Program-made: the position numbers and the translations under genes
Assembly: GCA_965217775.1 (NCBI GenBank)
Contig: CBDCJH010000002.1
Span: 1,056,001-1,120,000, forward strand
DNA length: 64,000 bases
Source of the DNA: Acidobacteriota bacterium
Lineage (GTDB): Bacteria; Acidobacteriota; UBA6911; RPQK01; JAJDTT01
Direction of reading: 5' to 3'
Notes under the pieces: model-generated
The model's database searches: none
Seen by the model: only the letters and a program-made list of their open reading frames with translations
Told to the model about the DNA's origin: nothing
In this document: positions 286 to 53,222 of the stretch, one piece after another
Position numbering within the stretch: the first letter of the stretch is position 1
Layout of the letters: every line of letters begins with the position of its first letter

Positions 286-417
286 CTAAAATGTTCTGTT
301 CATGAGCTGTCGCCGGAGTTCCATGAACTCAGACTCAAGGCACCCAAATACCTTATCGACATAATCGTCCAAATTTGCGCGGACTTCGTCGAAGTTGACT
401 TCAAAAGGAAACGACAT
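286..417 (-). pseudogene. Truncated 43-aa remnant of the gene coupled downstream of the methyltransferase (possible restriction endonuclease N-terminus)
   Basis: ATG at 417 overlaps MTase stop; reads MSFPFEVNFDEVRANLDDYVDKVFGCLESEFMELRRQLMNRTF*; identity inferred from position and recalled similarity. Confidence 0.4.
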
Positions 418-2755
418 CACGTGTCTCTTCGTCGGACTGTTTCTTTCGTAACAACGGTCCCGGCGATATTGGTACAGGATCGGCAGCGGCCACTAGTTCC
501 AAGATGTGGACAGGATCTCCAAGGCTGGATACTGTGTCGCCAAATGCCGCGATCTTGTTAGCTATCGGCTGACCCTTGTCCCAAAGCGGGCGGAGCTTCC
601 AGACGGCCATACGTGTCAGATGGCCGAAGACGATACAACGGGTGTCGCCTCGGGTCGGCTTTCTGCCCGCCTGCTCCAAGTCCGCCAAATCCACCGCCAC
701 GATTGCTGCAAGCTGTTCGGGCGTGTCGAATATCCAGCGGCGCGGCACTGCACCCGACGCCCGGCAGACGAACACGGTATCGATGATCGATGAACCCGTG
801 CCGTGGATGTGGATGGAGCCCCCCATCTCGGCGGGACAGGGCAGTGTGGCAGAAACGACCAGGTCGGCGTCCAGGATGGCCACTCCGACGGCGTGATACG
901 TCTCCAGCTTGTTGTGGTGGTAGGTGAACGCGAGCGGTGCGCCGGGCTTCAAGGCTTGGGCCATTCGCGAATAGGCGGCGGAGAGTCCTTCTGTGAAATG
1001 ATCCAATCCATGATTCCGGGTTACATTGCCATTAAGTTCGTCCTGAGATCGTGTGAGCGCGCGCTCAAAGCCATCCGCCTCGTTTCCCACCAAGCGTCGA
1101 AGCCAGACATAACAGAAGTCCATTAGCTCGCTATACTGCACGTTGCCGTAATACGGAGGGTCTGTGAACACGGCGTCGAGGCTCTCCGGCGAGACATCGA
1201 TAGAGGTGGCGCTGGCACAACGGATGGCCACTTTGCGCCGTTGCCCGCCCCGCTTCTCGCCGATCCATTCCCCTTTGATGGGAACCCGGACATTACGGGT
1301 CCCTCTGCGCCTGACTTCGAACGGCGCGCTGCAATACAGTTTCGCCTTGGCATATTTGTGGACAATGTTGGACCACCCGCCGGAGCCCACGTTGCGGCCG
1401 GCTCCGTTGTTTATGCGCAGGAGATTGGATTCGCACTGTACCAACCCCACCGGAAAGCCGTGCACGGAGAAGATGTCCAAAGATTTGAGCGCCGTAATGT
1501 CGTAGCGGCAGAGCATGTTCTGGTAGCGCAACAGGTCGGAGAGATTGGTGGCGATGGCATGCCGTATTCGCTGGTCCTTGACCTGGGAAATCAGCCGGCA
1601 ACTTAACAGTCCGTGGTGAAAGTCCCGCGAGCACCGAGACCGTTCCTGCGCCCGCCGGACAAGGCGCGATTCGGGTGCATACCGGGAGTATGTGCCCGAA
1701 TCGCAACGCCGTCCGCCGGGATGCAGGGACAGTCGAATGCCGTGATGACTTTTGCCACGGGCTGTTAACTCCAACCCTAGAAGTTGGCGTGGATTGAAGA
1801 GGTCTTTAAAGCGGGTGTACCCGCAGCGATGCAGACGATCGGTCTCGTCGCCGGCGAGGATCTCCTGGTTCGGAACGAAGCTGGGAGTGAGCTGTTCCCA
1901 TCGCTGTGAGGCAGCCTCCATGCGCAATGCATCTTCTTTGTCCGGTTTCTTGAAGAAACGGCCCTTGTGTTTCGCCTTTCGCGTGGGGTTGAAATATTCC
2001 ATCGCGAACATGCGGTGCCGCAGAGGACGTTGCGCCTCTCCCGGGTAGGCGTTGGAATGCCCGCAATGGGGGCATTCGCAGCGTCCTCTGCGCGCGGGGC
2101 CGGCTTGGCGAAGTTCGGTCCCACAGCTCGAGCAACCTCCCGAATCCCTGTAGTCCTCGACTTGGTTCAGATCACCGCAGGTCGGGCACACCAGGACATT
2201 CATCGGGTGACGCCGGTTCCTGGCGACCAGGTAGCCCGGAAAGAGGTCGAATGCTTGCCCGCAACGCACGCAATCGAGCACCTTGACCCAGAGGAAGGAC
2301 TTCACGGGTACGTTGGAATCCCCGTAGAGTGGGCAGGAGGTTCGGTAATATCGATCGATTTCCGTACGCAGAGCCGCAAGTAGCCTCTGAACTGCCTGCC
2401 GGTAAGCCGACAGGTCGACGGATTCAAGCTCTTCGCGGACAATCCACGCAGACATCGGATTGATGTCGAAACCCTGCACTTCGCATCCAACTCGATTGGC
2501 CTCAATGAGCGGGGTTCCACCGCCCATGAACGGGTCTGCGATCCGGATCCCCGAAAAGTCGTTTCTCCGGAAAAAAGTCTTTTCAAGACGGTCACGACCG
2601 AACTCGGCCAAAATCAGGCCACGAAACAGGGTGCCGGGACGGCGGGCGAACCACTTATGGACACCGATGATGGGACGGTAGTTCTGCTGTATCTGTTTTT
2701 CCTTGAATGCCATTCGGGCGACCAAGGAAACATCGAATCTGTGCTCGATACTCAT
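401..2755 (-). CDS. Amino (m6A/m4C-type) DNA methyltransferase with Zn ribbons (DUF1156-like), carrying a 54-aa in-frame MITE insertion
   Basis: HKWFARRP, DPFMGGG (motif I), TDPPY (motif IV), several CxxC pairs. Confidence 0.85.
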   Translation of the reverse strand: MSIEHRFDVSLVARMAFKEKQIQQNYRPIIGVHKWFARRPGTLFRGLILAEFGRDRLEKTFFRRNDFSGIRIADPFMGGGTPLIEANRVGCEVQGFDINPMSAWIVREELESVDLSAYRQAVQRLLAALRTEIDRYYRTSCPLYGDSNVPVKSFLWVKVLDCVRCGQAFDLFPGYLVARNRRHPMNVLVCPTCGDLNQVEDYRDSGGCSSCGTELRQAGPARRGRCECPHCGHSNAYPGEAQRPLRHRMFAMEYFNPTRKAKHKGRFFKKPDKEDALRMEAASQRWEQLTPSFVPNQEILAGDETDRLHRCGYTRFKDLFNPRQLLGLELTARGKSHHGIRLSLHPGGRRCDSGTYSRYAPESRLVRRAQERSRCSRDFHHGLLSCRLISQVKDQRIRHAIATNLSDLLRYQNMLCRYDITALKSLDIFSVHGFPVGLVQCESNLLRINNGAGRNVGSGGWSNIVHKYAKAKLYCSAPFEVRRRGTRNVRVPIKGEWIGEKRGGQRRKVAIRCASATSIDVSPESLDAVFTDPPYYGNVQYSELMDFCYVWLRRLVGNEADGFERALTRSQDELNGNVTRNHGLDHFTEGLSAAYSRMAQALKPGAPLAFTYHHNKLETYHAVGVAILDADLVVSATLPCPAEMGGSIHIHGTGSSIIDTVFVCRASGAVPRRWIFDTPEQLAAIVAVDLADLEQAGRKPTRGDTRCIVFGHLTRMAVWKLRPLWDKGQPIANKIAAFGDTVSSLGDPVHILELVAAADPVPISPGPLLRKKQSDEETRDVVSF
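1607..1764. mobile_element. MITE family A copy 1 (158 bp), inside the methyltransferase
   Basis: TIRs CAGTCCGTGGTGAAAGTC / CAGCCCGTGGCAAAAGTC (15/18); TTAA duplicated at 1603-1606 and 1765-1768. Confidence 0.95.
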
Positions 2756-3506: not shown

Positions 3507-3673
3507 GCCGGCGGCATTGACAGTTCCAGCGTCCGGTTGCCCCATGATCCCGGCTTGCAGGAGGCCGCGTTTGTTGTACCGAAAAGTGCAGCGGGTATAA
3601 TGGATCGCATCGACCGTTTGTCCAGGTCAGGATCTCCGAGGTGCTTATGCCAAGAACCTTCGTAAATTCTCCC

Positions 3674-5326
3674 ATGGATGTCAGGTTCGTTCTGCTTTCC
3701 CTGTTTCTGGTCCTGCTCCCGGTTCAGGCCAAAGAGAAGAAGCGGGACGACCGGGCCGTTCTCCAGGAAGAGCAGCAGGACTACTACAAGAAATGGCTCA
3801 AGGAGGACGTCGTCTACATCATCACCGATGAAGAGCTGGACGTGTTCGACGACCTTAGCACCATGGAGGAGAAGGAGCAGTTCATCGAGCAGTTCTGGCG
3901 CCGGCGCGACCCGGACCTGAGGACCGCCATCAACGAGTACAAGGAAGAACACTACCGGCGGATCGCCTACGCCAACGAGCGCTTTCCCAGCGGAAAGCCG
4001 GGCTGGATGACCGATCGGGGCCGCATCTACATCATTCATGGACCGCCGGATCAGATCACGTCCCGCGCCGGTGGGGGCTTCTATGCCCGCCCCATGCACG
4101 AGGGGGGCGGCGTGACCTCCACCTATCCCTTCGAAACCTGGCGCTACCGCTGGATCGAGGGTCTGGGGCAGGAAATCGAATTGGAGTTCGTGGACGCCTC
4201 TTTGAGCGGAGAGTACCGGCTGAGCCTGGACCCTGCCGAAAAGGACGCGCTGCTCTATCTTCCCGGTGGCGGCCTGACCCTGGCCGAGGAGATGGGTCTG
4301 GCCCAGAAGAAGGATCGGCCTTTCTTCTCCCCGGGCATGCGGGACAGCTTCCCCTACATGGCCACCCGGGCTCAGGACGACGTGTTCGAGCGCTACGAGC
4401 GTTACGTGATGATCAAGGCGCCCAAGAAGATCAAGTACGGCGATCTGAAGGGGCTGGTGGACGTCTCGGTCGGCTACGAGTCACTCCCTTTCCGAGTCCG
4501 GCGCGACTACTTCAAGCTGGGCGCCGATCGGGTGGTGGTTCCGGTGACGGTCGAACTCGACAACGGCGAACTATCGTTCAAGCTGGAAAAAAACCAGAGC
4601 TATGTGGCCAAGGTGGGTGTCTACGGCGCGGTCACCAGCATGACCAGGCAGGTGGTGGACGAGTTCGACTACGACCTGGTGCAGACCTACGTTCCGGAGG
4701 CGTACGCCGCCCAGGCTCAAAAACAGGGCCGGTCCACTTACCAGAAGATCCTGGTCCTGGAACGGAAGCTGCGTTACCGCCTGGACCTGGTGGTCAAGGA
4801 TCTGACCAGCGGCAAGGTGGGAGTCAGCCGGACCGCTATCGTTCCGCCGGCCTTCGGCGGTGAAAAGCTGAAAGCCAGCTCCATGATCCTCACCGATCTG
4901 GTTCGGCAGATGGAGGACGTTCCTCAGGAAGAGATGTTCATCCTGGGAAACGTGAAGGTGCGTCCGGTGCTGGATCACAGGTTCGCCGCCACGTCGCCTC
5001 TGGCCGTCTATCTTCAGGTCTATAATGTGAGCGCCGACCAGGCCACGATGGTCCCTTCCATTCAGGCCAGCTACCGGATTTCCAAGGGTAAGGATGTCCT
5101 GATGGAAGAAGTGGACGAGACGGGCGAGTCGATCCAGTACTTCTCGGGCCAGCGTATGGTCCTGATAAAGAGCCTTCCCATCCAGCAACTGAAGCCGGGC
5201 CGGTACCATCTGAACGTGCAAGTCCACGACAAGATCAGCGATCAGGAGGTCAGCGCCGGCCAGGTATTCCAGGTGCGCGCACCGTCTGCCGCCGATGGTC
5301 TGAACAAGACCGCGTCTCTCCAGTAG
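3674..5326 (+). CDS. GWxTD domain-containing secreted protein
   Basis: Signal peptide; FIEQFWRRRDP, EEHYRRIAYAN, GWMTDRGRIYI. Confidence 0.9.
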   Translation: MDVRFVLLSLFLVLLPVQAKEKKRDDRAVLQEEQQDYYKKWLKEDVVYIITDEELDVFDDLSTMEEKEQFIEQFWRRRDPDLRTAINEYKEEHYRRIAYANERFPSGKPGWMTDRGRIYIIHGPPDQITSRAGGGFYARPMHEGGGVTSTYPFETWRYRWIEGLGQEIELEFVDASLSGEYRLSLDPAEKDALLYLPGGGLTLAEEMGLAQKKDRPFFSPGMRDSFPYMATRAQDDVFERYERYVMIKAPKKIKYGDLKGLVDVSVGYESLPFRVRRDYFKLGADRVVVPVTVELDNGELSFKLEKNQSYVAKVGVYGAVTSMTRQVVDEFDYDLVQTYVPEAYAAQAQKQGRSTYQKILVLERKLRYRLDLVVKDLTSGKVGVSRTAIVPPAFGGEKLKASSMILTDLVRQMEDVPQEEMFILGNVKVRPVLDHRFAATSPLAVYLQVYNVSADQATMVPSIQASYRISKGKDVLMEEVDETGESIQYFSGQRMVLIKSLPIQQLKPGRYHLNVQVHDKISDQEVSAGQVFQVRAPSAADGLNKTASLQ

Positions 5327-5349: not shown

Positions 5350-6741
5350 CTGACCGCTACCCCGTCCCCTCCCCGGAGCCGGGTCCGCTACTCCGTCCTG
5401 GTCTGGCTCTGCGTGGCAGCCACCATCGCCTACATCCAGCGCAACTACCTCTCGGTGGCCGAGAGCACGATCCGGATCGACCTGGGCCTGAGCAAGGAGC
5501 AGATGGGATGGATCTTGAGCGGCTTCTTCTGGGTCTACGCCGGATTCCAGGTGCCTGCCGGCTGGCTCGGGGATCGCTGGGGCGCGCGGCGGACCCTCCC
5601 CTTCTACTCGGTGGTCTGGTCGGTTTGCACCGTGCTGTCGGGGGTGGCGGGAACGGCATTGGCTCTCTGGCTGGCGGGACCGGGGGGAGCGATCCTGGCG
5701 GCCTACCTCTGGTTGCTGATCCCCCGCATGTTCTCCGGAGCCGCCCAGGCGGGTCTCTTCCCCTGTTCCGCGGTCGTGTTGTCGAGATGGATGCCGGTGA
5801 ACCGGTTGGCCGTTTCGAGCGGCTCTCTCGGAGCCGGGATGCAGATCGGAGCCATCCTCGTCGCCTTTCTGACCGGGATTCTTCTGGAATGGGGTGTCGG
5901 CTGGCGTTGGCTCTTTGTCCTCTACGCGCTTCCGGGGGGGATCTGGGCGCTGCTGTTCTATCGCTGGTTTCGTGACCGCCCTCGGGACCACGCCTCCGTG
6001 ACGCCGGAAGAACTGGATCTTCTGCTGGCCGAGTCCAAAGCCACCCGGGAATCGAAAGGGGCAGCGGACGAAGGATCGGGCCGCGGCCGGCCCGTCAAGA
6101 CACCCTGGAAGCATCTGGCCGCGAGTCCGGCCATGTGGGCCATCTGCGGACAGCAGTTCTTCCGGGCCGCCGGGTATATCTTCTATGCCAGTTGGTTTCC
6201 CACCTATCTGCAGGAAGCGCGAGGCGTCTCGGTGGCCGAGTCGGGCCTGCTGACGAGTGTTCCCCTGATTGCGATTCTATTCGGAGGACCGCTGGGTGGT
6301 ATCGTCTCCGATTGGATCTACTCCAGAAGCGGGAATGTGGCAATGGCCCGGAAAGGGATGGCCTTGGGCTGCCTCCTGGTCGGAGTCCTGCTCACGGTGG
6401 CTGGATGTCTGGTTCACAATCCGCTGCTTGCCGTCTCTCTCATTGGGATCGGTGGCTTCTTTGGCGCTTTCGTCAGCCCTATCGTCAATTCCCTGACCAT
6501 CGCCATGGGCGGAAACAACGTGGCGACGATCTTCGGCACCATGAACATGGCGGGGAATCTGGGAGCGGCGGCGTTTCCCGTCGTGGTTCCGTTGCTTCTG
6601 GGGCCGTCGGGTGACAACTGGACCCCGGTCTTGTGGGTGTTCTGCGGCGTGTACGTGGTGGCGGCTCTGTTCTGGCTGATGCTCAAACCGCAGGGCACGT
6701 TCGTCGGGCAGTCGCTTCTTTCTCGGGTCCCCTCATCGTAG
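5350..6741 (+). CDS. MFS transporter (ACS/sugar-acid type); start probably at CTG 5350
   Basis: GWLGDRWGARR motif, about 12 TM; frame open upstream of 5413 with RVRYSVLVWLC and GGAGG 6 nt before CTG 5350. Confidence 0.85.
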   Translation: MTATPSPPRSRVRYSVLVWLCVAATIAYIQRNYLSVAESTIRIDLGLSKEQMGWILSGFFWVYAGFQVPAGWLGDRWGARRTLPFYSVVWSVCTVLSGVAGTALALWLAGPGGAILAAYLWLLIPRMFSGAAQAGLFPCSAVVLSRWMPVNRLAVSSGSLGAGMQIGAILVAFLTGILLEWGVGWRWLFVLYALPGGIWALLFYRWFRDRPRDHASVTPEELDLLLAESKATRESKGAADEGSGRGRPVKTPWKHLAASPAMWAICGQQFFRAAGYIFYASWFPTYLQEARGVSVAESGLLTSVPLIAILFGGPLGGIVSDWIYSRSGNVAMARKGMALGCLLVGVLLTVAGCLVHNPLLAVSLIGIGGFFGAFVSPIVNSLTIAMGGNNVATIFGTMNMAGNLGAAAFPVVVPLLLGPSGDNWTPVLWVFCGVYVVAALFWLMLKPQGTFVGQSLLSRVPSS

Positions 6742-6775: not shown

Positions 6776-6933
6776 CAGCCCGTGGCAAAAGTCGTCACGG
6801 CATTCGACCGTCCCTGCATCCCGGCGGACTGCGTTGCTATCGGCTCACATACTCCCGGTATGCTCCTTCATCGCGCCTTGTCCGGCGGGCGCAGGAACGG
6901 TCTCGGTGCTCGCGAGACTCTTGCCACGGACTG
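6776..6933. mobile_element. MITE family A copy 2 (158 bp, more diverged, no intact TSD)
   Basis: Colinear with the other copies; TIRs 16/18; flanks TAAA and TCAT differ. Confidence 0.9.
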
Positions 6934-6935
6934 TC

Positions 6936-7565
6936 ATGCGTTGGGCCGCCCTGGGCGTTCTGCTCCAGGTCTGCCAGAGTGTCGGAACCGAAGCCGCCTC
7001 CATTCCCAAGCCGCGGCCACGCATTCCCTATCAAGCGGTCCAGCCGGCCAAGGGGGTGTTCCTGGTCGCCCGGAAGGGGATGCTCGACCCCCGGTTTCGG
7101 CAATCCGTGGTCCTGCTCGTGGCTCACGGCCCGGGCGGAACGCTGGGTGTAATCGTCAACCGGGCTACCGACGTCTCTTTGGAGGATGTCCTGCCCCAGA
7201 TCGAGACACCGGGTCGGAAGGCCCGGCTCTACTACGGAGGTCCGGTGGGTCTGGATACGCTCATGTTTCTGATCCGGAGCGAGGAACCGCTGGAGCAGAC
7301 GACCAATGTGATGGGGGACGTCTACTTCGGAGGCGACAAGAAGACGCTGGAACGTCTTCTGGAAGAGGAAAGGGAATCCCACGAACTCCGCCTCTTCGTC
7401 GGGCATTCGGGATGGGCTCCGGGCCAGTTGGATTCGGAGTTGGATCGGGGCGACTGGCGCCTTTTTCGGGCCAATGCCTTCACCGTATTCGAGAAGCGCC
7501 TGGACAGCATCTGGTCCGACTTCATGGAGCCCCCGAAATCCGAACGGGAAGTGGCGGCCCGGTGA
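6936..7565 (+). CDS. YqgE/AlgH (DUF179) family protein
   Basis: DPRFRQSVVLL, GTLGVIVNR, YYGGPV, FVGHSGWAPGQLDSEL; start uncertain (6759 or 6936). Confidence 0.9.
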   Translation: MRWAALGVLLQVCQSVGTEAASIPKPRPRIPYQAVQPAKGVFLVARKGMLDPRFRQSVVLLVAHGPGGTLGVIVNRATDVSLEDVLPQIETPGRKARLYYGGPVGLDTLMFLIRSEEPLEQTTNVMGDVYFGGDKKTLERLLEEERESHELRLFVGHSGWAPGQLDSELDRGDWRLFRANAFTVFEKRLDSIWSDFMEPPKSEREVAAR

Positions 7566-7586
7566 GAGGCTTGGTCTAGGAAGCGA

Positions 7587-8669
7587 ATGATGGGAAACAA
7601 GCTCAGAGATCCATCGTACTCCCGCCGCCAGTGGATGGGGCTGGCCACACTGGGCGGCATAACGGCAGTGTCCGCGGGACCACGACCGGCGACTTCGGAA
7701 ACACCGGCCGGTCCGCACCGTCTCGCTTTGAGGGCCGGAGAGTTGGAGGCCCTGGTGGTGGACAACCACGACGGGCTGGCCGGTGAGGAACAGAAACGCA
7801 GCCGGGCTTCGGTCCCCCATGTGGCCGGAGGATTGGGACGCCTTAGCGTCGCAGTCCCCTTCGAGAGGCGTCACAATGGCTACAACGGAGTCGCGCGCTT
7901 CAGTTACCGGGGATCTCCACACCCCTTTCTCCCCGTTGCTTCGGGTCTGAATTGCGAGTTCTTCTTCGACGGAACCGAGGGCACCTTCGAACCCCGCTGG
8001 AGTGACCTCGATAATTTCCAGGCCCAGCCGTCGAGCTTGAAGCGGGTATCCGAGCAAGAGGCTTGGCTCCGGATCGAACCCGGCGAACGGTGGGGCGTCC
8101 AGGTGGAGTCCACCTTCCGATTGGTGGAACCGTGGTTCCTGGACGTGGAGCACGCCTTCACACCCACCCGGCTGGACAAGATCCGGACCCGGTATTTGGG
8201 CGTGTTCTGGGCCAGCTACATCCAGGCTCCCCGAAATCCGGGCTACTACGTTTGGGGCCGGAGGTCGAACTTCGAATCGCCCGCTTGGCACGGTATCTTC
8301 GACGCCCTGGATTTGCACGAATCGGGAGCGATCCGGGCCGAGCGGGGTCCAGTGGGGGAGGGATTGCGGGCTCAGGGAAGGCGTCTGCTCTACAGCTTCG
8401 GCTCGGTGCGCTACGTCGAACCTCTGATGGCCGGCAAGGTCCACGGCATGTTGCTGGCCTACCTGTTCCGCCCTTCAGACGAGTTGGAAATCCGCCCCGC
8501 CTTCAACGCCGGCGGGGGAGGAGTCGGCGGCCCCGCTTGGGACTACCAGGCGGTGGTCCCGGACCCGGAGGAAGGACGCCGCTACAGCTTTCGGCTGAGA
8601 GTCGTCTACAAGCCGTTCGAAGCTCTGGACGAGGCCCTGGAACTCCATCGGGAGTGGGTCACGGGATAG
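7587..8669 (+). CDS. Tat-signal hypothetical protein (mutarotase-like beta fold possible)
   Basis: SRRQWMGLA twin-arginine leader; long ORF with typical codon usage. Confidence 0.6.
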   Translation: MMGNKLRDPSYSRRQWMGLATLGGITAVSAGPRPATSETPAGPHRLALRAGELEALVVDNHDGLAGEEQKRSRASVPHVAGGLGRLSVAVPFERRHNGYNGVARFSYRGSPHPFLPVASGLNCEFFFDGTEGTFEPRWSDLDNFQAQPSSLKRVSEQEAWLRIEPGERWGVQVESTFRLVEPWFLDVEHAFTPTRLDKIRTRYLGVFWASYIQAPRNPGYYVWGRRSNFESPAWHGIFDALDLHESGAIRAERGPVGEGLRAQGRRLLYSFGSVRYVEPLMAGKVHGMLLAYLFRPSDELEIRPAFNAGGGGVGGPAWDYQAVVPDPEEGRRYSFRLRVVYKPFEALDEALELHREWVTG

Positions 8670-8912
8670 TCTCTAAATGTAGTTGATCGAAAGGTAGGCA
8701 GGTGGAGCTCCACAAAACTCGGGACAACACCGCCTGCGACTTGGCTCGAAATGTACGAAGCTTGGTTGCAGGAATTTTCCGCCAATGCAACCGTCGTCTC
8801 CGAGACTCGACTCTCAGCGAAGCTGGTTTTTGTTACAACGAGATTCGGTCTCGGGCAAGCGCTGAAGGCTGAAATCCTGCGCGATCATCGCGCCCCCGGT
8901 GAGAAATTCGGG
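8670..8912. mobile_element. Chimeric or degenerate MITE: right end of family B, unrelated left part
   Basis: About 8860-8912 GCGCTGAAGGCTGAAATCCTGCGCGATCATCGCGCCCCCGGTGAGAAATTCGGG followed by CTAA matches the family B end; fills the gap between two TAG stops. Confidence 0.65.
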
Positions 8913-9227
8913 CTAAGCGGCCACGCCAGGTTGGGGCGTCACCTCCTTGTCGAGTCGATCCTTGAGGACAGCCTTCGCTGTTTCAAGCTCGTAGCGAGAC
9001 TGCAAATTCATCCAGAATCGAGCGGAGTTTCCAAAGTACCTGCTTAACCGGAGCGCCGTGTCTGCCGTGATGGCGCGCTTCTCGTGAAAGATCTCATTGA
9101 TCCGGCGGGGCGGCACCGAGATGTCCTTGGCCAGCCGGTATTGGGTCAGGCCCATCGGCTTCATGAACTCCTCCCGCAGAATTTCTCCGGGATGGATGGG
9201 TTGCAGGGTCTGGTCTCTCTGATCCAT
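8913..9227 (-). CDS. higA: HigA antitoxin
   Basis: PIHPGEILREEF, ITADTALRLSRYFG, FWMNLQ. Confidence 0.95.
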   Translation of the reverse strand: MDQRDQTLQPIHPGEILREEFMKPMGLTQYRLAKDISVPPRRINEIFHEKRAITADTALRLSRYFGNSARFWMNLQSRYELETAKAVLKDRLDKEVTPQPGVAA

Positions 9228-37424: not shown

Positions 37425-37724
37425 ACGCATCCTCAAGAAGTCGTCCGTGTGAAATGGCGGAATCAGCCACTTCATGTCTAGCCCGCATTTCTCACCAGGT
37501 CGCTACGCGTATGATGAAAAAGAATTTGTTTTTGAGCATTTACGCGGATTATGCCAAGGTTTCTCCGGGACAGACTGCGCGCTGGGCGCTCGCTCGCTGG
37601 TCTTTTCGCCCTCAGCGCGCACATGCTCCCTCAAACGTAGTCACCACTACGCTCTCGGTCGCGAGCACGCGCTGAGGGCGAAAATCCTGCGCGATCGTCA
37701 CGCCCCCTTCTGAGAAACAACCCT

Positions 37725-39300: not shown

Positions 39301-39527
39301 CCATTCTAGCGAAAGCGAACCCCCCTGTTTCTCTTAGGATTTCGCCGGCCCCAGGCCGGTGGGGGAGCTGGTGAGAAATGCGGGCTAGGATAAGAACGCA
39401 GAATGGGAGCCTGCGGCGTTATAAGGAATTAAGTCTGGAGACGGTGTGGGTCATCGATGGAGAGTCCGTGTCCCGGGTGGGGAACGCTACCCGGATCGCT
39501 CAATAATTCGTACATGGGTAAATCTTC

Positions 39528-45079: not shown

Positions 45080-48000
45080 TCAGAAAATCAACCGGAGCCC
45101 CCACTGCACGATCCGCTGGAACGGGGCGGTGCCCATGCCGCCGCTGAAAATGGTCTTGTCCAGGAACTGGTCGGTGCCGGGAGTGACGTATCCGGGAAAG
45201 CCCGTGGCATTGACGGTGGTATTGAACACGGATCCGTTGCCCACGATAGGGTTGGGGTGGTTGACAGTCCGTGGTGAAAGTCCCGCGAGCACCGAGACCG
45301 TTCCTGCGCCCGCCGGACAAGGCGCGATTCGGGTGCATACCGGGAGTATGTGCCCGAATCGCAACGCCGTCCGCCGGGATGCAGGGACGGTCGAATGCCG
45401 TGATGACTTTTGCCACGGGCTGTTGAAGGCGTTCCACAACTCGGCACGGAACTGCAGTCTCATCCCTTCTTTGCCTGGAAGATCCAGATTCCTGAAAATC
45501 CCCAGGTTCCAGACCTTGATCCCGGGTGAGAGGAACGTGCCCCGGCCCATGTTGGTCTGGGCGCCCGTTCCTCCCCGGATGTACCTTGCCCCCGGATCCC
45601 GAGCGACGTAGCCGACCACGTTGGCGGGGCCTCCGCACCGGTCGGAACTCTCCGCGATTCCGATTTCAGTCCCCTGCCGGCAGACGAAATTCACGTCCGT
45701 TCCGGTTTGGCCGCGGCCTTGGGGATTCTCGATGGCCGTATCGCCGGCGGTGTTGAAGTCCCCGTTCAGGTCGCGGCGGGAGATGATGGTGAGCGGCTGT
45801 CCGCTCTCGGCCAGATAGGTCCCGTTGATCTGCCACCCGCGGGTCAACAGGTTCAGCAAGCGGTTACCCCGGCTGACGCCCGGGAGGTTCCACAGCCAAC
45901 TGAGGGAAAGCTTGTGGGCATGGTGCAGTCCCGAGAGACCCCGGCCGGAGCGAATGTCCAGGTGATCGAAGGGCCGCCGAGGATTCATGAAGCTGGTGAA
46001 CAGGTCGTTCTCCATGAAGTCGATGGTCTTGCTCCAGGTGTAGTTGGCGTTGAACGAGAACCCTTTCGAAAACCGTTTCTGCAGCAACACGGAGCCCCCG
46101 TGGTACCAGGACTGGCCGTCGGGAGCGAACTCCGTCACCACTCCGGCGAACCCGTAGGGCCAGAGCAGCAGGCCCAGACCCAGGGGCGTCCCATCCGTGG
46201 CGGTGGAGCGCCTTCCCTTGAGGAAATCGGCCAGCGTCGGAGCGCCCCGAAAGTCCTGCTCCAAGGCATCGGACTCCCGGACGAAGGTGGGAAGGCGATG
46301 GGGGTTGGGGAGTCCCGCGCTCTTCCACCGCTGGACCGGCAGGTGGATCGCGTGATTGCCGACATATCGTGCTTCGATCATGTAGTCACCCGCCAACTGC
46401 TGCTGAAGAGCCAGGGACCAGGTGTAGGTTTCGGGCGACACGTCGTCGCGCACGAGGACTCCGGTGGCGGCCCGGGCGACATAGGTGTCGGTGAAGGTCG
46501 TGGGCGGCAGACTCGTCAGCAGGCCGCCCCCGCCCAGAAACCCGACGGTGGAGTGCCGGATGTCGGCGCTCAGAGCGTCACCGCCCGTTTCCATCAGGGC
46601 ACACCAGCCAGGCGAGGGGCTGATGGCGCAGGCGTTGGTTTCGCGATTCTCCGCCTGGATCTGTGGCGGCAGCATCAACAACGGCAGGTTGCCGAAGATG
46701 ACGTCGTGGGCCACCCCCACGCCTCCCCGAAGGGAGGTCTTGTGGGTCCCGAAGAGATCCCAGGCAAAGCCGATCCGGGGCGCCCAGTTGTTTCGATCGG
46801 CATGGGGTTTGCGGAAGATGAGCGACTCGCCCACATGGTTCAAGAGCGCGGACTGATGGGCCGGGGGCAGGGAATCGAAGATCTTGGCGCCCAAAAGAGG
46901 AGAGTCCGGGGCTACGCCGAGTGAGCCCAGGAGCTGCGGTGTGAAGACCTCTTCCCGAATGGATTCGATGTTGGACAGGGCGTTGAGGTCCTGCAGGGCG
47001 GTGTCCCGGGCCACCTGGGTGTATTCGTAGCGGAGTCCCAGATCCAAAGTGAGGTGCGGGTGAACCTGCCAGTTGTCCTGCAAATAGCCGAACATCGCCG
47101 CCCGGTTCTGGGCGAAGAACCCGGTTCCGACGCCTCGAATGGCCACCACGCTGGGGAAACGGTCGCGGACGAACTCGTCGAGGTCTGCGTAGGTGTACTC
47201 CGCCCGTCCCCGCGGGAGGAACAGGCTGCCCGCGATGATGTTCCTGTAGTCGGCTCCCATTTTGATGGTGTGGGAGCCCAGGCTCCAACTGAAGTTCTCG
47301 CTGACCTGATAGACGTTGTCGGTGCCCGCCTGAGGAAAGAGCAAATGAGGTCCGATGAACAGGCTGATGTCGTTGATGTTGTAGTTGCCGAAGGTGTCGG
47401 TGGGACCCGGGGCCGGGGGCAGATCCACCGGGAACCCGTTGGCGTTGCGGTTGTAGCCGATCCGCAGCTCATTGATCCGGGTCGGGCCGAGAGTGAAGAC
47501 GTCGCTCACCGTGACCCGTTGAGTGTCGGTGAAGACGTCGCTGTTGAAACGGGCGACCGGAAGCTCGCCGGCGGCAACCTGCCGATTCCGGCTGTAGTGG
47601 TATCGGGTGCTGATGCGGTGCCGGTTGGTCTGGTAGTCGCTGCTGATCAGGAAAAGGTGGGTTCGATCGAACTGGGGTGCCGACAACGACAGGACCCCCA
47701 GTTCGATGGGGACTCGCCGGCCGGTGGCTTCGTTGAGAACCGCCGCAGTGGCGGAGGCGGCAGCGGCGGGAGGCACGTGGTCCGCGATGATGCCGACGGT
47801 GACGGGACTGACACCGGTGCCCGGCTCCGCCGCCAGATTGCGCAACGCGGCCAGTCCCGCCCGGGTGGGGCCCAGGATCTGCCCAGGCGAGGTCCCGTCC
47901 AAGGTGAGATTCCGGTACTCGTAGGACCCGAAAATGAACCATTTGTCCTTTAGAACCGGACCTCCCAGCTGTCCCCCGAAGCGGTTCCAGTCATAACGGG

Positions 48001-48160
48001 GCTTGCGGTCCCCCGGCCGAGTGGCGGCCCGGGTCAAATTGTCCAGGGAGTTCGTATGCCGATTCTGGTTGAACCACCAGGCCCGGCCCTGCCATGAGTT
48101 GGTCCCCGACTTGGTCGTGGTGATGAACTGCCCGGCCGTGGAGTGGCCGTTGGGCCCGCC
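45080..48160 (-). pseudogene. TonB-dependent receptor barrel lacking its N-terminus and plug, fused in frame to a GWxTD C-terminus; contains a MITE insertion
   Basis: TKSGTN, NRFGGQLGGP, YLQDNWQV..LTLDLGLRYE, NNWAPRIGFAWD, RIVQWGLRLIF; junction position approximate. Confidence 0.8.
45265..45422. mobile_element. MITE family A copy 3 (158 bp), inside the TonB receptor
   Basis: Nearly identical to copy 1; TTGA duplicated at 45261-45264 and 45423-45426. Confidence 0.95.
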
Positions 48161-49444
48161 GGCGGTGAACGTGTTGTCCACCGACGGGTGGATCCGGACG
48201 TCGCCCAGGACAAACCTGCGGCCCGCTTCCGAAGTCCCCCCGACCGGTCGCAGATCGTGGGACAGGATGAGGGAACTGGCGGCCAGCGTGTCGTCCGGGT
48301 AGGAAGGCGGATCGACGGGTCGGCGAACGATTCCCGCCTTGCCGCTATTGAGGTCCCTGACCACCAGGTCGATCCGGTAGCGTCCTCGGCGGTCGAGGGA
48401 AATTAGTTACTGGTAGAGCGACCGGGATGCCCGAGCCCGGCCCAGGTCTTGCGGAAGGTAGCCCGAGACCAGTTCGTCCTCGAACTCCGCAACGAGCTGC
48501 CGGGAAACGCTGGTGACGATGCCGTAGACGGACACCCTCGCCGTCAGGGATCCGGCATCCGGCTCGTAGGTCAGTGCCTGGTCCCGGTTCAGTTTGAAAT
48601 GGTCTTGCCGCAATTTGAGCGGGAGGTCTCGATAACCGACCTCGAGCCGAACCAGCTCCCTCAGCTCCGTCGATTTGATCTCCGTGGGACGTTGGACTCG
48701 GCTGTAAGTCTCATAGCGATCGAATGGCGAGTCTTTGGCTCGCAGGGCGTTGAAGGAAGGAGGAGGCCGATATGCCTTGCGAGTCAGGCCTCTCCCCTCC
48801 GACCAGGTCAGGCCCGCGCCGGGAACCTGCCGGAGAACGTCCTTTTCGTCCGGGTTCAGGGCCAACCGGTATTCGCCCCCGCCCACCGGGTCCACGAACT
48901 CGAGCTCGACGTCGTCCCCGATGCCTTCGAGGCGGCGGTAACGCCAGATCTCGAAGGGATGGGTGGACGTGAACCCGCCGCCTTCGTGAACGGGGCGCTG
49001 GTAGGGGCCCCCGGAGGGGTGGCTCTCGATCTCGTCCGGTGGACCATGCAGGATGTAGATCCGCCCCCGGTCGGTCGTCCAGCCGGGCTTGCCGCTCCGG
49101 AACCACTGGTTGGCGTAGGCGATTCGCCGGTAATGCTCCTCCTTGTACTCGCAGACGGCGGTGCTGGGATCCGGGTCGCGGCGCCGCCAGAACTGCTCGA
49201 TGAACGTTTCCCGTTCCAGGTCGGTGTTCAGGCTCTCGAAGACGGTCTTTTCCCCAGGCGTGATGATGTAGGCGACAACCTGGTTGAGCCACCTTTCGAA
49301 GTGGTCGTCACTTTCCTCTTGCCCGCCCGCAGCGGCGGAGGCGGACGCCGCCGGTGGAGGCGAGGCCGAGGCTCCGAACGGAGAGTGGGAGACGAGGAGC
49401 AGTGCGAAGCAGAGACAAAATCTCCGGACGCTCTCGAGTCCCAT
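48161..49444 (-). pseudogene. Second GWxTD gene with in-frame TAA (48407-48409), small internal deletion and truncated C-terminus
   Basis: GWTTDRGRIYI; LYQ*LISLDRRGRYRIDLVVRDLNSGK aligns to paralog TYQKILVLERKLRYRLDLVVKDLTSGK. Confidence 0.85.
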
Positions 49445-49457
49445 GGGCGCGGTTGGG

Positions 49458-52310
49458 TTACCGGCGGGTGACCCAGATCGCCGAGGACCAGGCCATCATC
49501 TCGTCTTCCTGGATGACCCTCACGTAGTAGTAGCTGGTTCCCGGTCCGGAGTCCTGGTCCAGGTAGGTCACCGAGGCCTCGCGTTGGTGGGGCCGGGTCT
49601 GGTAGACGAACGTGTTGTCCTTGACCACGTCGATCTGCCGGATGGGTCCGGTCCCGATGGCCTTGATTTCCAGCTTCGGGGTTTCGGAGAGGGTGGTTTC
49701 GTCCCCCATGAAGGCGTCGCCGATACGGAAGTCGATGACGATGTTGTCGGTGGAGGCCAGGGTATGGCGCTGTTTCAGGCCCTGGAAGATCCCTTCCCGC
49801 GTGAACTCCGTGGCCCAGACTCCGGCGTAGGACATGTGGGTGGATTCATGGTCGGAGCTGCCGATGACGCCGATGCGGTGTCCGCGGGCCAGGGCGTCCC
49901 ACAACATGTGGGGTCCTTCGGGCCGGTTCCCCAGGGGACCCCGGCTCTCTTCGGGAAGTGCGTCCGCATGCTCGTAGGAGCGGCGAAAGCCCTGGTACAT
50001 TTCCAGCACCGGCTGGCTGACCGGATCATGCCACTTCCAGCTCACCCGGGGGCCCAGGGGAGAGTGGGGTATGGAGATTCCGTCGGTCCCCTTGAGCCTT
50101 TCCCACAGGCCCAGGGGAATGTTGTCCGAAGGAATGCCCACGTCGCCGGGAATCAATTCGCCGCGGCGTTCGGGCCAGATCAGGTTGCGGTGTCCCCCCG
50201 GATATTCCATGCTCCGCTCGTATCCGAACAGGGACACGAATCGGCCCGGAAACAGGTACATGTCCGCCACCTTCTGGGTTCGCCACCAGCCATACTCGCC
50301 CAGCGCGTCCTCCTTGCCGACGTTCCTGGCCCCTTTGGCCACCATGTTGTAGGTCTGGTTGTGGTCCGTGGTGGCCATGAAATCCAGTTCCGCCCCGTCC
50401 AGCGCGTAGCGGTATTGACCCGAGATGGAGAGGTCGGTCCAACCGTGGCCCACGATGTCGGTGTGGCGATGCAGGTCCCCGTAGTAGAGGCGATAGGTCT
50501 TGCCTCCCACCGTGGTCTCGTAGAGCTTGTTGGGCGTGGCGGAATAACGGGTCTCCGGCCCCGGAGCCGGGACCGGCCGCAGATCGCCGGCCTCACCGGC
50601 GGCCGGCGGCGCGGCCAAGCGCGAGGACCAGAGGTCCCACTGTCCCAGACGCCGGATTCCGCCCGCGCGGTAGTCGGTGGAATAGAGTACCCAGACGCTT
50701 CCGTCCGGGTGCGCGGCCGCGGGAAACTCCTGGGTCAAACGGCCGCTGCTGAAGGCCAGTTCCCGCGGCCGGGACCACTGCTCTCCGTTGAAATGGACGG
50801 CGTACAGGTTCCAGACCTCGTCCGGGTACATGCGGCTGGTCCACTGGCGGAAGATGAGCCAGAGGTTGCCATTCCGGCCCATCAGGAGCCGCGGCTGCTC
50901 CTGGAAATTCAGAGGCAGATCCAGGAAGCGGCTTCCCGGATCCTGTCCCATCCGGTGCCAGCTCCCTTGACTCCGGCAACGAATCCGGATCTTGCGGTCG
51001 GAATGGAGCAGAGTTGCCCCGAAATTGCTCTCCTGAGCGTAGTCCTTGCCCCACTCGGGACCCGATTCTTCCCAGGCGACCCAGAGCCGGTCCCGGGAAT
51101 CGAAGACAACCGAAGCATTGGCTTCGTAGTAGCGTGTGGCCGAGACCGGTTCCACTCTTCCCAGACGGCCACGGGGTCCGATGGTTCTCAGATAGATGTC
51201 GTAGTCGCCGTTCCGGTAGGTGTCCCAGGCGATGGCGGCCCCGCCCGAGGAGTCGACAGCGACGGCTGGGTGCCAGTCGGTCCCGGGATGCTCGGTGACG
51301 CGGATCTCGTCCGGCAGCCGACCGAAGTCGGCGATGGAGAGAGCGTAGATGTCGGAGTTTCCCTCTCTCAGGCCTTGCCAGACCAGCCAGTTCCTCCCGC
51401 TTGAGTCGAAAGCGGTCACCGGGTTGATGTCGTTGCCGGGGTGGCGGGTCAACTGGATCGGATCCTCCAGAGACGGCTTCAGTTGACGGGCCCAGAGGTC
51501 GAACTGGTCCTCCGCGAGCTGATTGTAGATGAGCCAGAGACTCTCGCCGGGACCCCTGGTGATCAGGGCCGTCCCGTAAATGGGGTTCCCGCCTGCCGAG
51601 GGGATTCGGTGAGGCGGGCCCCAGCCGTTCCGGCCCAGGGTGCTGGTGTAGAGGTGATCGGCCCCGTCCTGGTATTGGATCCAGGCCGCGTGAAGGTGAC
51701 CGTCCGGACCGACCACGATGGAAGGGTAGTCCTCTTCGCCGGGCGAGCGGGAAACCGGGAGAGCCGCGGGGGATCTCTCCACCGATGCGGCGCCGTCCAA
51801 GAACCATGCGGGGTCCGTGTCCGGAAGCTGGTCCAGGTCGACCTGGAAATCTCCCTGAACCGTGTTCACGTCCATCCGAGCTCCAGGCAGCGAGTCCAGT
51901 TGCAGCCAGACGCCCACGGGACGGGTGAGCTTGAAGCCATAGCGGGGCCGTGAGTTCCCGAGTCCCTTGACGGTCCAGCTCGTGTCCACGTCCGGGCGCT
52001 TGGTCCCGACCCTCCAGGCGATCTTCGGTTCCTGGATCACCTCGGACCCCTCCTCGTTGAAGTTCCAACCCTGGATCCGGTGGAAATCGCCCCGGTTCAG
52101 GTGGGCGATTCCGTTCCAGTCCCGGAGCTCCGCGTCCTTCAGGCCAAGTGAGACCTTCACGGTGAGGGGAAGCTGCGACGGTTCAAAGGAAGGCGCTGGA
52201 GATGAGGCCTGTGCCGGCTTTCCCGCGGACGGGAGCCACTCGGATCCGAAACGGATCCCCGCGGCGGCCGCCAGAGCCAAAATGAGCACAGCCGAGAGGC
52301 GTCGAGTCAT
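49458..52310 (-). CDS. Secreted beta-propeller + PHP-like metallohydrolase (DUF3604/CehA-McbA-like)
   Basis: Propeller repeats; YYGDLHRHT, TDHN, GHRN, IPH, GSSDH, YYYVRVIQED. Confidence 0.7.
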   Translation of the reverse strand: MTRRLSAVLILALAAAAGIRFGSEWLPSAGKPAQASSPAPSFEPSQLPLTVKVSLGLKDAELRDWNGIAHLNRGDFHRIQGWNFNEEGSEVIQEPKIAWRVGTKRPDVDTSWTVKGLGNSRPRYGFKLTRPVGVWLQLDSLPGARMDVNTVQGDFQVDLDQLPDTDPAWFLDGAASVERSPAALPVSRSPGEEDYPSIVVGPDGHLHAAWIQYQDGADHLYTSTLGRNGWGPPHRIPSAGGNPIYGTALITRGPGESLWLIYNQLAEDQFDLWARQLKPSLEDPIQLTRHPGNDINPVTAFDSSGRNWLVWQGLREGNSDIYALSIADFGRLPDEIRVTEHPGTDWHPAVAVDSSGGAAIAWDTYRNGDYDIYLRTIGPRGRLGRVEPVSATRYYEANASVVFDSRDRLWVAWEESGPEWGKDYAQESNFGATLLHSDRKIRIRCRSQGSWHRMGQDPGSRFLDLPLNFQEQPRLLMGRNGNLWLIFRQWTSRMYPDEVWNLYAVHFNGEQWSRPRELAFSSGRLTQEFPAAAHPDGSVWVLYSTDYRAGGIRRLGQWDLWSSRLAAPPAAGEAGDLRPVPAPGPETRYSATPNKLYETTVGGKTYRLYYGDLHRHTDIVGHGWTDLSISGQYRYALDGAELDFMATTDHNQTYNMVAKGARNVGKEDALGEYGWWRTQKVADMYLFPGRFVSLFGYERSMEYPGGHRNLIWPERRGELIPGDVGIPSDNIPLGLWERLKGTDGISIPHSPLGPRVSWKWHDPVSQPVLEMYQGFRRSYEHADALPEESRGPLGNRPEGPHMLWDALARGHRIGVIGSSDHESTHMSYAGVWATEFTREGIFQGLKQRHTLASTDNIVIDFRIGDAFMGDETTLSETPKLEIKAIGTGPIRQIDVVKDNTFVYQTRPHQREASVTYLDQDSGPGTSYYYVRVIQEDEMMAWSSAIWVTRR

Positions 52311-52437: not shown

Positions 52438-52595
52438 CAGCCCGTGGCAAAAGTCATCACGGCATTCGACCGTCCCTGCATCCCGGCGGACGGCGTTGCT
52501 ATCGGCTCACATACTCCCGGTATGCACCCGAATCGCGCCTGGTCCGGCGGGCGCAGGAACGGTCTCGGTGCTCGCGGGACTTTCACCACGGACTG
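52438..52595. mobile_element. MITE family A copy 4 (158 bp, intergenic)
   Basis: Same TIRs; TCAA duplicated at 52434-52437 and 52596-52599. Confidence 0.95.
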
Positions 52596-52950: not shown

Positions 52951-53190
52951 CCCGCATTTCTCCCCAGGGGGCGTGACGATCGCGCAGGATTTTCGCCCTC
53001 AGCGCGTGCTCGCGACCGAGAGCGTAGTGGTGACTACGTTTGAGGGAGCATGTGCGCGCTGAGGGCGAAAAGACCAGCGAGCGAGCGCCCAGCGCAGTAT
53101 GTCCCGGAGAAACCTTGGAAAATTCCGCGTAAATGCTCAAAAACAGATTATTTTTCATCATACGCGTAGCGACCTGGTGAGAAATTCGGG
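52951..53190. mobile_element. MITE family B intact copy (240 bp, inverted relative to 37482)
   Basis: TIRs CCCGCATTTCTCCCCAGG / CCCGAATTTCTCACCAGG; flanks CTAG / CTAA; internal 17-bp perfect inverted repeat TTTTCGCCCTCAGCGCG. Confidence 0.92.
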
Positions 53191-53222
53191 CTAAGGAGAG
53201 ACCGGGAAAAGGGACGAGGCAG

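Follow-up and report, generated by a model that had tools for sequence, protein, structure and literature searches.

The stretch of DNA considered here, a 64,000-nucleotide window from the genome of an Acidobacteriota bacterium (GenBank assembly GCA_965217775.1, contig CBDCJH010000002.1, positions 1,056,001 to 1,120,000; "the window" throughout), raises the question of whether a small mobile element can be built so as to live inside genes. At positions 1603-1768 a 158-bp miniature transposable element with inverted repeats (MITE), together with its target-site duplication (TSD), lies in frame within a putative DNA methyltransferase gene, and an initial annotation of the window proposed that the length and coding neutrality of the element allow it to colonize genes. 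The analyses described below do not support that proposal. Copies of the element are strongly depleted from genes even in the frame-preserving orientation, their orientation is not demonstrably biased, and the element is most probably an ordinary hairpin MITE whose frame-neutrality is a by-product rather than a device for living in genes.

The element and its copies in the window

A repeat search within the window, together with an alignment of the copies and their flanks, recovers all four copies listed in the initial annotation (starting at 1607, 6776, 45265 and 52438). These are 90-99% alike, lie two per strand, and lose their similarity exactly at CAG...CTG. Their terminal inverted repeats (TIRs) of approximately 18 nt, the pairing of which includes wobble pairs, have ends that are invariant in 19 sequences, and perfect 4-bp duplications flank copies 1, 3 and 4 (TTAA, TTGA and TTGA, respectively). 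As had been stated initially, 158 bp plus a 4-bp duplication amounts at 1603-1768 to 162 bp, or 54 codons. When all six frames are read the longest possible peptide is 52 residues, and the 158-bp element contains no transposase gene. The copies and their parts are as follows:

1603-1606, no strand: left TSD of copy 1 (TTAA), placed from the sequence and from public contigs that join 1602 to 1765
1607-1764, plus strand: MITE copy 1, 158 bp, CAGTCCGTGG...CCACGGGCTG, with its CAGTCC... strand on the plus strand of the window
1607-1624, plus strand: left TIR of copy 1, CAGTCCGTGGTGAAAGTC, pairing with 1747-1764, the outer 16-20 nt being common with a 1,475-bp insertion sequence (IS)
1747-1764, plus strand: right TIR of copy 1, GACTTTTGCCACGGGCTG, with 20 of 20 bases equal to the right end of the IS at G000:C2:2325898-2327373 (G000 being the present genome)
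1765-1768, no strand: right TSD of copy 1 (TTAA), placed from the sequence and from the public contig joint
6776-6933, minus strand: MITE copy 2, more diverged than the other three, its duplication being degenerate (ATGA/TTTA)
45265-45422, plus strand: MITE copy 3, with TTGA duplications at 45261-45264 and 45423-45426, in frame within the open reading frame (ORF) 45080-48364 (minus strand)
52438-52595, minus strand: MITE copy 4, in intergenic DNA immediately upstream of where ORF 49458-52310 (minus strand) starts, with a TTGA duplication (TCAA on the plus strand)

Copy 2 lies between an MFS transporter gene (5413-6741, plus strand) and the 3' end of ORF 6837-8444 (minus strand; 535 aa, without a Pfam match). 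The latter ends inside the copy, which supplies its last approximately 31 codons.

Copies across the genome and the phylum

G000 is a 6.43-Mb assembly of a sponge-associated member of the Acidobacteriota, comprising two contigs with 62% G+C. A genome-wide BLASTN search with copy 1, suggested as a check alongside the initial annotation, returns 273 matches, of which 213 are near full length (102 on one strand and 111 on the other). Specifically, 149 of these 213 copies are 158 bp in length, 34 are 159 bp and 20 are 160 bp, with copies less than 92% identical to copy 1 measuring mostly 159-160 bp (17 of 73 are 158 bp) and 132 of the 140 younger copies measuring 158 bp. A perfect 4-bp duplication of the NTAN type, its central TA nearly always present, flanks 154 of the 213 copies, with counts of 27 for TTAA, 19 for CTAG, 13 each for ATAT and TTGA, and 12 for GTAG. 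Since TTAA and CTAG are rare in the genome (1,333 and 1,675 sites on the chromosome), these counts reveal a strong preference for both tetramers. The family displays all of the hallmarks of a MITE, namely a short sequence lacking a transposase, TIRs, a duplication of fixed length, many dispersed copies, empty sites and an autonomous IS with matching ends. It is a MITE of a familiar kind, and a search of the literature on Acidobacteria/sponge MITEs and on IS1182-linked MITEs found no description of this particular family.

Beyond G000, the element is present in all eight other genomes of the genus (62-226 first-look candidates in each) and absent, at E<=0.001, from all 32 genomes examined from other genera in the family and order. 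In a sample of the phylum, 19 of 301 genomes match (G000 included), representing 11 of 185 genera. Matches outside the genus are 70-77% identical and mostly full length, and the 158-bp length is found in 14 of 22 distant relatives. A scan of species representatives for exact 42-mers matched solely metagenome-assembled genomes of Acidobacteriota, one of which is labelled Aminicenantes.

Two arrangements of the element in G000 are worth recording separately. Three pairs of copies stand head to tail exactly 4 bp apart (G000:C2:483865-484186, 2174457-2174777 and 4957274-4957593), as if a new copy had targeted the duplication of an older one. A 95-bp derivative, in which positions 1-52 are joined to 104-158, occurs at four loci (G000:C2:985933-986029, 3579131-3579227, 4889634-4889730 and 5007959-5008055) and may itself be mobile.

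Position and orientation relative to genes

Genes were called with a codon-usage model trained on long ORFs and applied to the genome with the elements removed, which yielded 4,541 genes at 86% coverage, 14% of the genome being intergenic. By these calls, 138 of the 213 copies are intergenic, 39 are interior to genes, 20 lie at the stop codon or in the last 1.5% of a gene, and a further 16 fall within the first 5%, a part of the gene in which start calls cannot be relied upon. A further test, independent of start calls, defined a deep-coding position by 80 stop-free codons with a positive coding score on both sides. Only 15 copies (7.0%) occupy such positions, as compared with 37.8% of sites matched for the target tetramer and 57% of random positions, a depletion of approximately 5-fold relative to the target-matched sites.

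Orientation was analyzed in the same framework. The 15 deep-coding copies divide 10 to 5 in favor of the open orientation, a bias that is not significant (p=0.30); read-through is seen in 12 of them. In relatives, where the 42-mer scan yielded 57 distinct copies, the six deep-coding copies divide 3:3, for a pooled ratio of 13:8 and again no significant bias, and the 39 interior gene calls comprise 18 copies in the stop-free orientation and 21 in the other. Intergenic copies are likewise without orientation bias toward their neighboring genes (60:62 downstream, 54:67 upstream), and the share of copies overlapping genes is 30-39% in every age class, old copies equaling young ones. Colonization of genes by virtue of length and coding neutrality is not borne out by a deep-coding share of 7% against 37.8%, an orientation ratio of 10:5, and an open strand that, among distant relatives, is confined to 3 of 22. 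The initial annotation had itself reasoned that random orientation combined with occurrence in dead genes only would reduce neutrality to an accident of base composition; the orientation data agree with that description, and the host genes described below agree with it in part, three of them being seemingly intact.

Insertion into a methyltransferase gene

The gene that drew attention to the element is the following:

401-2755, minus strand: host ORF P0001, 784 aa, DUF1156-type DNA methyltransferase-like, residues 330-383 of which are the MITE plus one copy of the duplication

P0001 (METHYLTRANSFERASE) matches a model for DUF1156 anti-phage-associated methylases weakly and contains FMGGG and DPPY motifs. 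Because the host gene is on the minus strand, copy 1 is read on its stop-free CAGCCC... strand, and the protein runs LLGLE-L/TARGKSHH...HHGL/LSCRLI across the element. An alignment was built from P0001 and the best 120 of 4,699 homologs (E<=1e-10), 121 sequences in all. Among these 121, a set that includes P0001, 93 have the family length of 730 aa, and the 54 insert columns contain no residues from any of the best 120 of 4,699 homologs. Furthermore, a 730-aa homolog from assembled contigs (P0002), 99% identical to P0001, is free of the insert, and in four of four public runs 1602 is joined to 1765 with exactly 162 bases skipped (5 letters being ambiguous). The depth of this joint equals that of its flanks (28.9 vs 30.1/23.6 in run X1). 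Together these data bear out the earlier description of a methyltransferase made longer by 54 aa, and they reveal an insert-free allele.

The same joint raises the possibility that the insert is removed after transcription or translation, in the manner of an intron or an intein, such that the host protein is restored. For two of the four public runs the library type is unrecorded; the other two are metatranscriptomes labelled sponge metagenome, and their contigs, which cover parts of the methyltransferase gene, do skip exactly 162 bases, as such removal would predict; contigs cannot, however, show transcription or strand, no meaning attaches to the parts of the gene left uncovered, and RNA libraries can contain DNA. 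The joint also occurs, at full flank depth, in the two runs of unrecorded library type, the assembled 730-aa protein indicates that an insert-free DNA allele exists, and the target duplication stands at the limits of the skipped piece, as it would at an empty site. Rfam gives no intron match, and the peptide has no intein motifs (the latter judged by eye only). Removal of the insert from RNA or protein is very improbable.

The state of the gene is informative as well. The insert interrupts a block, FNPRQLLGLE/LSCRLI, that is 97-100% conserved, and P0001 carries two private changes, W311C and G447R, both in columns with 100% conservation among the other 120 sequences. The eight other genomes of the genus yielded no ortholog of P0001. 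An AlphaFold2 model of P0001 (44 aligned sequences) has a mean pLDDT of 47.7, with 20-26 over the insert region, and is too poor to place the insert; a profile search of solved structures matches only the AdoMet motif at residues 68-114 and returns nothing for the insert region. When 1.84 billion representatives were searched with the 54-residue peptide by phmmer, 108 matches were obtained, all of 69-459 aa and mostly short ORFs, a result that says little because long hosts cluster with their insert-free relatives. Taken together, the methyltransferase insertion reads as a recent, polymorphic event in an accessory gene of defense type, and, judging from the interrupted block and the private changes, it has probably inactivated the enzyme. 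Elsewhere in the genome, a partial paralog of the first 204 residues of P0001 (73% identity) is found in a 307-aa frame at G000:C2:2121532-2122143.

Other host genes

The second gene of the window to contain a copy of the element is also compromised:

45080-48364, minus strand: TonB-dependent-receptor-like outer-membrane barrel gene, 5'-truncated, with copy 3 approximately 60 codons from its 3' end

Here the insert falls within the last 25 positions of the barrel profile, and the site is precisely empty in the orthologs from genomes G001, G002 and G005 (88-90% identical). Relative to G002, the G000 gene has suffered a 1,033-bp 5' deletion in which approximately 239 codons and the upstream region were lost, including the CarboxypepD_reg domain that the ortholog retains, and it is because of this truncation that the receptor is regarded as a pseudogene. 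Beyond this deletion lies the second of two 417-nt arms (3779-4195 and 48890-49306) that are 74% complementary, are located in or adjoining a GWxTD-domain gene (3641-5326), and are probably diverged paralogous genes.

Outside the window, five further hosts were examined. A sulfatase gene (G000:C2:4119092-4121005) has a 439-bp deletion, and its Pfam match begins at profile position 99, as compared with coverage of positions 1-299 by the insert-free ortholog of G007; G006 has the same insertion in a gene without its 3' part, such that the sole insertion shared between species has a host gene that is broken in G000 and in G006 alike. For a TPR protein, the part homologous to relatives begins downstream of the insert, and the insert is therefore probably located at or before the true start. 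The remaining three hosts encode a Schlafen/AlbA_2-type ATPase, an OB-fold protein and a LamG/He_PIG protein, and for each of them relatives possess homologs that lack the insert. Counting the two genes of the window, the seven hosts comprise two that are dead, one that is probably inactivated, one that is doubtful and three that are seemingly intact; homologs with empty sites exist in other genomes of the genus for five of the seven, and in none of the seven has an insertion been kept across species in a working gene. These observations are consistent with a process in which selection would remove most genic insertions, the survivors being recent, polymorphic, and situated in accessory, decaying or broken genes.

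The stop-free strand

What, then, is to be made of the open reading frames of the element? As the initial annotation described, one strand is stop-free in all three frames: in the consensus, the CAGCCCGTGG strand (CAGCCC...) has no stops in any frame, with 0, 2 and 1 stops in the frames of the other strand. One strand is fully open in 182 of the 213 copies and five of six frames are open in 74 of 213; the opposite strand has 0-2 open frames across copies, and in copy 3 it has two, again as described. Several null models were compared with these values. The frequency of a fully open strand is 11.6% in dinucleotide shuffles, 14% and 7%, respectively, in 158-mers drawn at random from the genome and from intergenic DNA, 3.7% in palindromic nulls and 1.9% in mononucleotide shuffles, and at least five of six frames are open in 2.1% of the dinucleotide, 2.9% of the palindromic and 0.26% of the mononucleotide nulls. 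The stop-free property is thus mildly unusual; the repeat itself, with 213 copies and 154 perfect duplications, is certainly beyond chance. Among the 22 distant family members, just three have a fully open strand.

A precedent for behavior of this kind exists in the Rickettsia palindromic elements (RPEs), which, like the present MITE, are palindromic repeats of approximately 150 bp that can sit in frame within ORFs and add a peptide. By analogy, both the 3n length and the stop-free strand would have been selected at the level of the element, with 54-residue peptides serving as tolerated or even useful modules. Several observations favor this alternative and weigh against a purely incidental neutrality. 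Firstly, the 162-bp total holds in 149 of the 213 copies, and a length of 158 bp is retained by 14 of 22 relatives despite an identity of merely 70-77%. Secondly, in addition to the open strand of 182 copies, the family is stop-poorer than its shuffles, with a mean of 3.25 of six frames open in 20 family sequences as compared with 1.85 when the same sequences undergo mononucleotide shuffling and 2.4 when dinucleotide shuffling is applied to the G000 consensus. In the largest subfamily, which numbers 74 copies, five of six frames are open, a state reached by 0.3-3% of nulls. Thirdly, 12 of the 15 deep-coding copies are read through, interior calls with a gene score of at least 50 divide 11:4 between open and stop orientations (p=0.12), and the Schlafen/AlbA_2-type ATPase, OB-fold and LamG/He_PIG hosts, all with read-through inserts, show no other lesion. 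It must also be considered that the gene caller was home-made, that strand calls are sometimes ambiguous at 62% G+C, that several copies were assigned opposite strands by two criteria, and that it is from common ends that mobilization of the MITE by an IS transposase, discussed below, is suggested.

Set against these points is the approximately 5-fold depletion from deep-coding positions, which indicates that insertions in the open orientation are usually purged too and that any gain in copy number would be small. The orientation bias is not significant, and read-through of 12 in 15 is expected without selection from elements with 5/6 or 4/6 open frames. Moreover, the open strand is found in only three of the 22 distant relatives, older subfamilies of 159-160 bp have an equal genic share, no insertion in the seven hosts is fixed across species, and both genic hosts in the window are compromised. 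An adaptation resembling that of the RPEs is, on balance, improbable. Since genes are depleted of the element and its hosts are in several cases already broken, frame-neutrality looks incidental, and the ordinary-MITE interpretation would explain the stop-free strand as a by-product of a G+C-rich, stop-poor hairpin sequence.

A partner insertion sequence and an IS110-type guest

The initial annotation regarded the element as derived from an IS5/IS1182-like IS and suggested a search for an autonomous IS with the same TIRs. A fuzzy search for MITE ends outside the known copies identified inverted end pairs 1,475-1,476 bp apart, flanked by 4-bp duplications (CTAG or TCAA) and encoding a 452-aa transposase in which the Pfam domains DUF772 and DDE_Tnp_1_6 both pass. 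One copy is intact (1,476 bp, G000:C2:2325898-2327373, with a TCAA duplication and agreement with the right end of the MITE at 20 of 20 outer bases), a further two, identical to each other, carry frameshifts, and several fragments are present. The match between MITE and IS is confined to the outer 16-20 nt and their interiors are unrelated, so the MITE is not a simple deletion derivative of the IS; the proposed IS5/IS1182-type origin is borne out at the superfamily level. The best NCBIfam model for the transposase, NF033551 (IS1182), is matched at 171.3 bits, below its equivalog cut-off of 270, and the IS5 models are likewise under their cut-offs. The nearest annotated plasmid homologs are 47-52% identical, one of them labelled IS5 family transposase. 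Given these scores and homologs, the partner is assigned solely to the IS5/IS1182 superfamily.

A mechanism suggested by the common ends can be outlined. The MITE, as a non-autonomous transposon of 158 bp, would be moved in trans by the DDE transposase of the 1,475-bp IS5/IS1182-type IS, which would recognize the shared outer 16-20 nt, cut at NTAN (with TTAA and CTAG preferred), and leave a 4-bp duplication. Each insertion of 158 + 4 bp then adds 162 bp, and the reading frame is never shifted; as the currently active subfamily is stop-free on one strand, a gene that receives it in that orientation keeps its frame open and is lengthened by 54 residues.

Split copies of the MITE, in which positions 1-64 and 71-158 are separated by 1.5 kb, were considered as a possible autonomous parent and rejected, the intervening DNA being instead a guest of the IS110 family. 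The four copies of this guest (L001-L004), all outside the window, are as follows:

G000:C2:1656568-1658241: IS110-family element in MITE
G000:C2:3134809-3136482: IS110-family element in MITE
G000:C2:5760147-5761892: IS110-family element in MITE
G000:C2:6039542-6041287: IS110-family element in MITE

The guest is 1.52 kb in length, and its product is a DEDD transposase of 317 aa (NCBIfam "RNA-guided transposase," 217 bits); its copies are 99.7-100% alike. All four lie inside a MITE, where they share both their relative orientation and a single insertion site close to the apex of the hairpin, and the MITE appears to be a specific target of this element.

Hairpin structure

Copy 1 folds as a single long hairpin. 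On the CAGTCC strand the predicted energy is -108 kcal/mol (z = -11.3), as compared with -94.2 on the opposite strand. In an alignment of 19 sequences from G000 and other Acidobacteriota families, 95.3% of cells pair, and compensatory changes are seen in 26 of 54 pairs as compared with 13.1 +/- 2.1 in shuffled alignments, 0 of 500 of which attain the observed number, and with 5-10 when the alignment is slid as a control. The hairpin register is kept in copies from other families (L113-L130) aligned with window positions 1607-1764, and the internal loops contain invariant motifs (GCACCGAGA, CAAGGCG, GCAACG, GGGATGCA and TCGAATGC). Pairs of G with U outnumber A-C mismatches by 80:12 across families and by 1,150:28 within the genome, the structure having been predicted on that same strand. 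A search of Rfam gave no match at gathering score over the window and, for the element, only chance-level matches at E<=5 (best E 0.15). These data suggest that structure, rather than coding, constrains the sequence and perhaps the length of the element.

If structure is the constraint, the hairpin could be a conserved RNA or single-stranded DNA that serves transposition, the host, or the IS110-type element as a landing pad, with length and stop-poverty as side effects. The pairing, the covariation, the loops that are invariant across families, the excess of G-U over A-C together with the more stable fold of the CAGTCC strand, and the placement of four of four IS110-family copies at one apex site are all in keeping with such a role. 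However, no orientation bias toward neighboring genes is apparent (60:62 and 54:67) and no Rfam match was obtained; copies descend from few masters, such that wobble counts are not independent, and the strand they favor is the strand on which the structure was predicted. Palindromes can, moreover, persist at the level of DNA, and a structured nucleic acid would in any case be compatible with the element being a MITE. This possibility is unlikely, although it deserves some weight. We attach little probability to a combined scenario in which selection acts both for structure and for invisibility to the ribosome, with some copies persisting in genes as 54-residue modules; the 3n insertion length and the stop-poor sequence would then be adaptations, and the element a transposase-linked counterpart of the RPEs in free-living bacteria.

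Comparison with known systems

Considered as the ordinary hairpin MITE favored here, the element most closely resembles the prokaryotic MITEs associated with IS5/IS1182 elements, with which it shares its small size, lack of coding capacity, TIRs, 4-bp duplication with a central TA, hundreds of mostly intergenic copies, and a partner IS whose ends and footprint agree with its own. It differs from these in that its interior is unrelated to the IS and forms a hairpin that covaries and has loops that are invariant across families of the phylum.

The resemblance to RPEs is more limited. RPEs are not known to have a transposase partner, and in this respect the present MITE, which has one, is set apart from them. 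It keeps the frame without stops, as RPEs do; a large ORF share and cross-species conservation in functional genes were not found, with 7% of copies at deep-coding positions, insertions that are polymorphic or species-specific, and several broken hosts. By contrast, according to a 2024 review (PMC10969869), nearly half of the copies of three RPE families are in ORFs (Ogata et al., 2000), and of 12 homologs from other species 11 likewise lie in frame. In the same review there are passages that describe in-frame fusions by intragenic MITEs as "not unusual," with RPEs as the extreme case, and portray ERIC, BOX and Correia elements as small mobile repeats that are sometimes in genes and sometimes read through; these resemble the present family in that regard and differ in coming from Proteobacteria and Firmicutes, a comparison that goes by the description in the review only.

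The association with an IS110-family element also has a counterpart. In a report on Coxiella burnetii (PMC5896051), QMITE insertions can be in frame and an IS110-family element targets the MITE palindrome. Specifically, the internal palindrome of QMITE2 is targeted by IS1111, and occasional in-frame insertions and overlaps with gene 3' ends occur, as in the present family; QMITE2, unlike it, has duplications of 7-11 nt and a GTAG REP (PMC5896051). The MITE described here has instead a 4-bp NTAN duplication, a different hairpin and a distinct 1.52-kb IS110-type guest.

The family matters in practice for annotation, as a repeat that has three open frames and is present approximately 200 times in each genome will give rise to spurious ORFs, and to 54-residue "insertions" in the predicted proteins of these sponge-associated Acidobacteriota, and in-frame read-through should not be counted as evidence of a living gene. 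It also provides a clean and quantifiable case of insertion polymorphism, of preference for TTAA and CTAG, and of an IS110-type element homing to a MITE apex. Were the adaptive interpretation true, the RPE phenomenon would extend to a free-living phylum and to an element with a known transposase; the data do not favor it.

Other repeats

Two further repeat families were encountered. One, unrelated to the MITE, consists of inverted copies of approximately 240 bp at window positions 37479-37717 and 52957-53193 that are 93-98% alike, with shorter related pieces at 8845-8936 and 39365-39408. The other is a repeat of approximately 135 bp, with at least 18 copies in G000, that in G002 lies downstream of the receptor ortholog (L093, positions 1157-1293). 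This intergenic site is occupied in G002 and not in G000, which marks the repeat as a further MITE-like family with insertion polymorphism.

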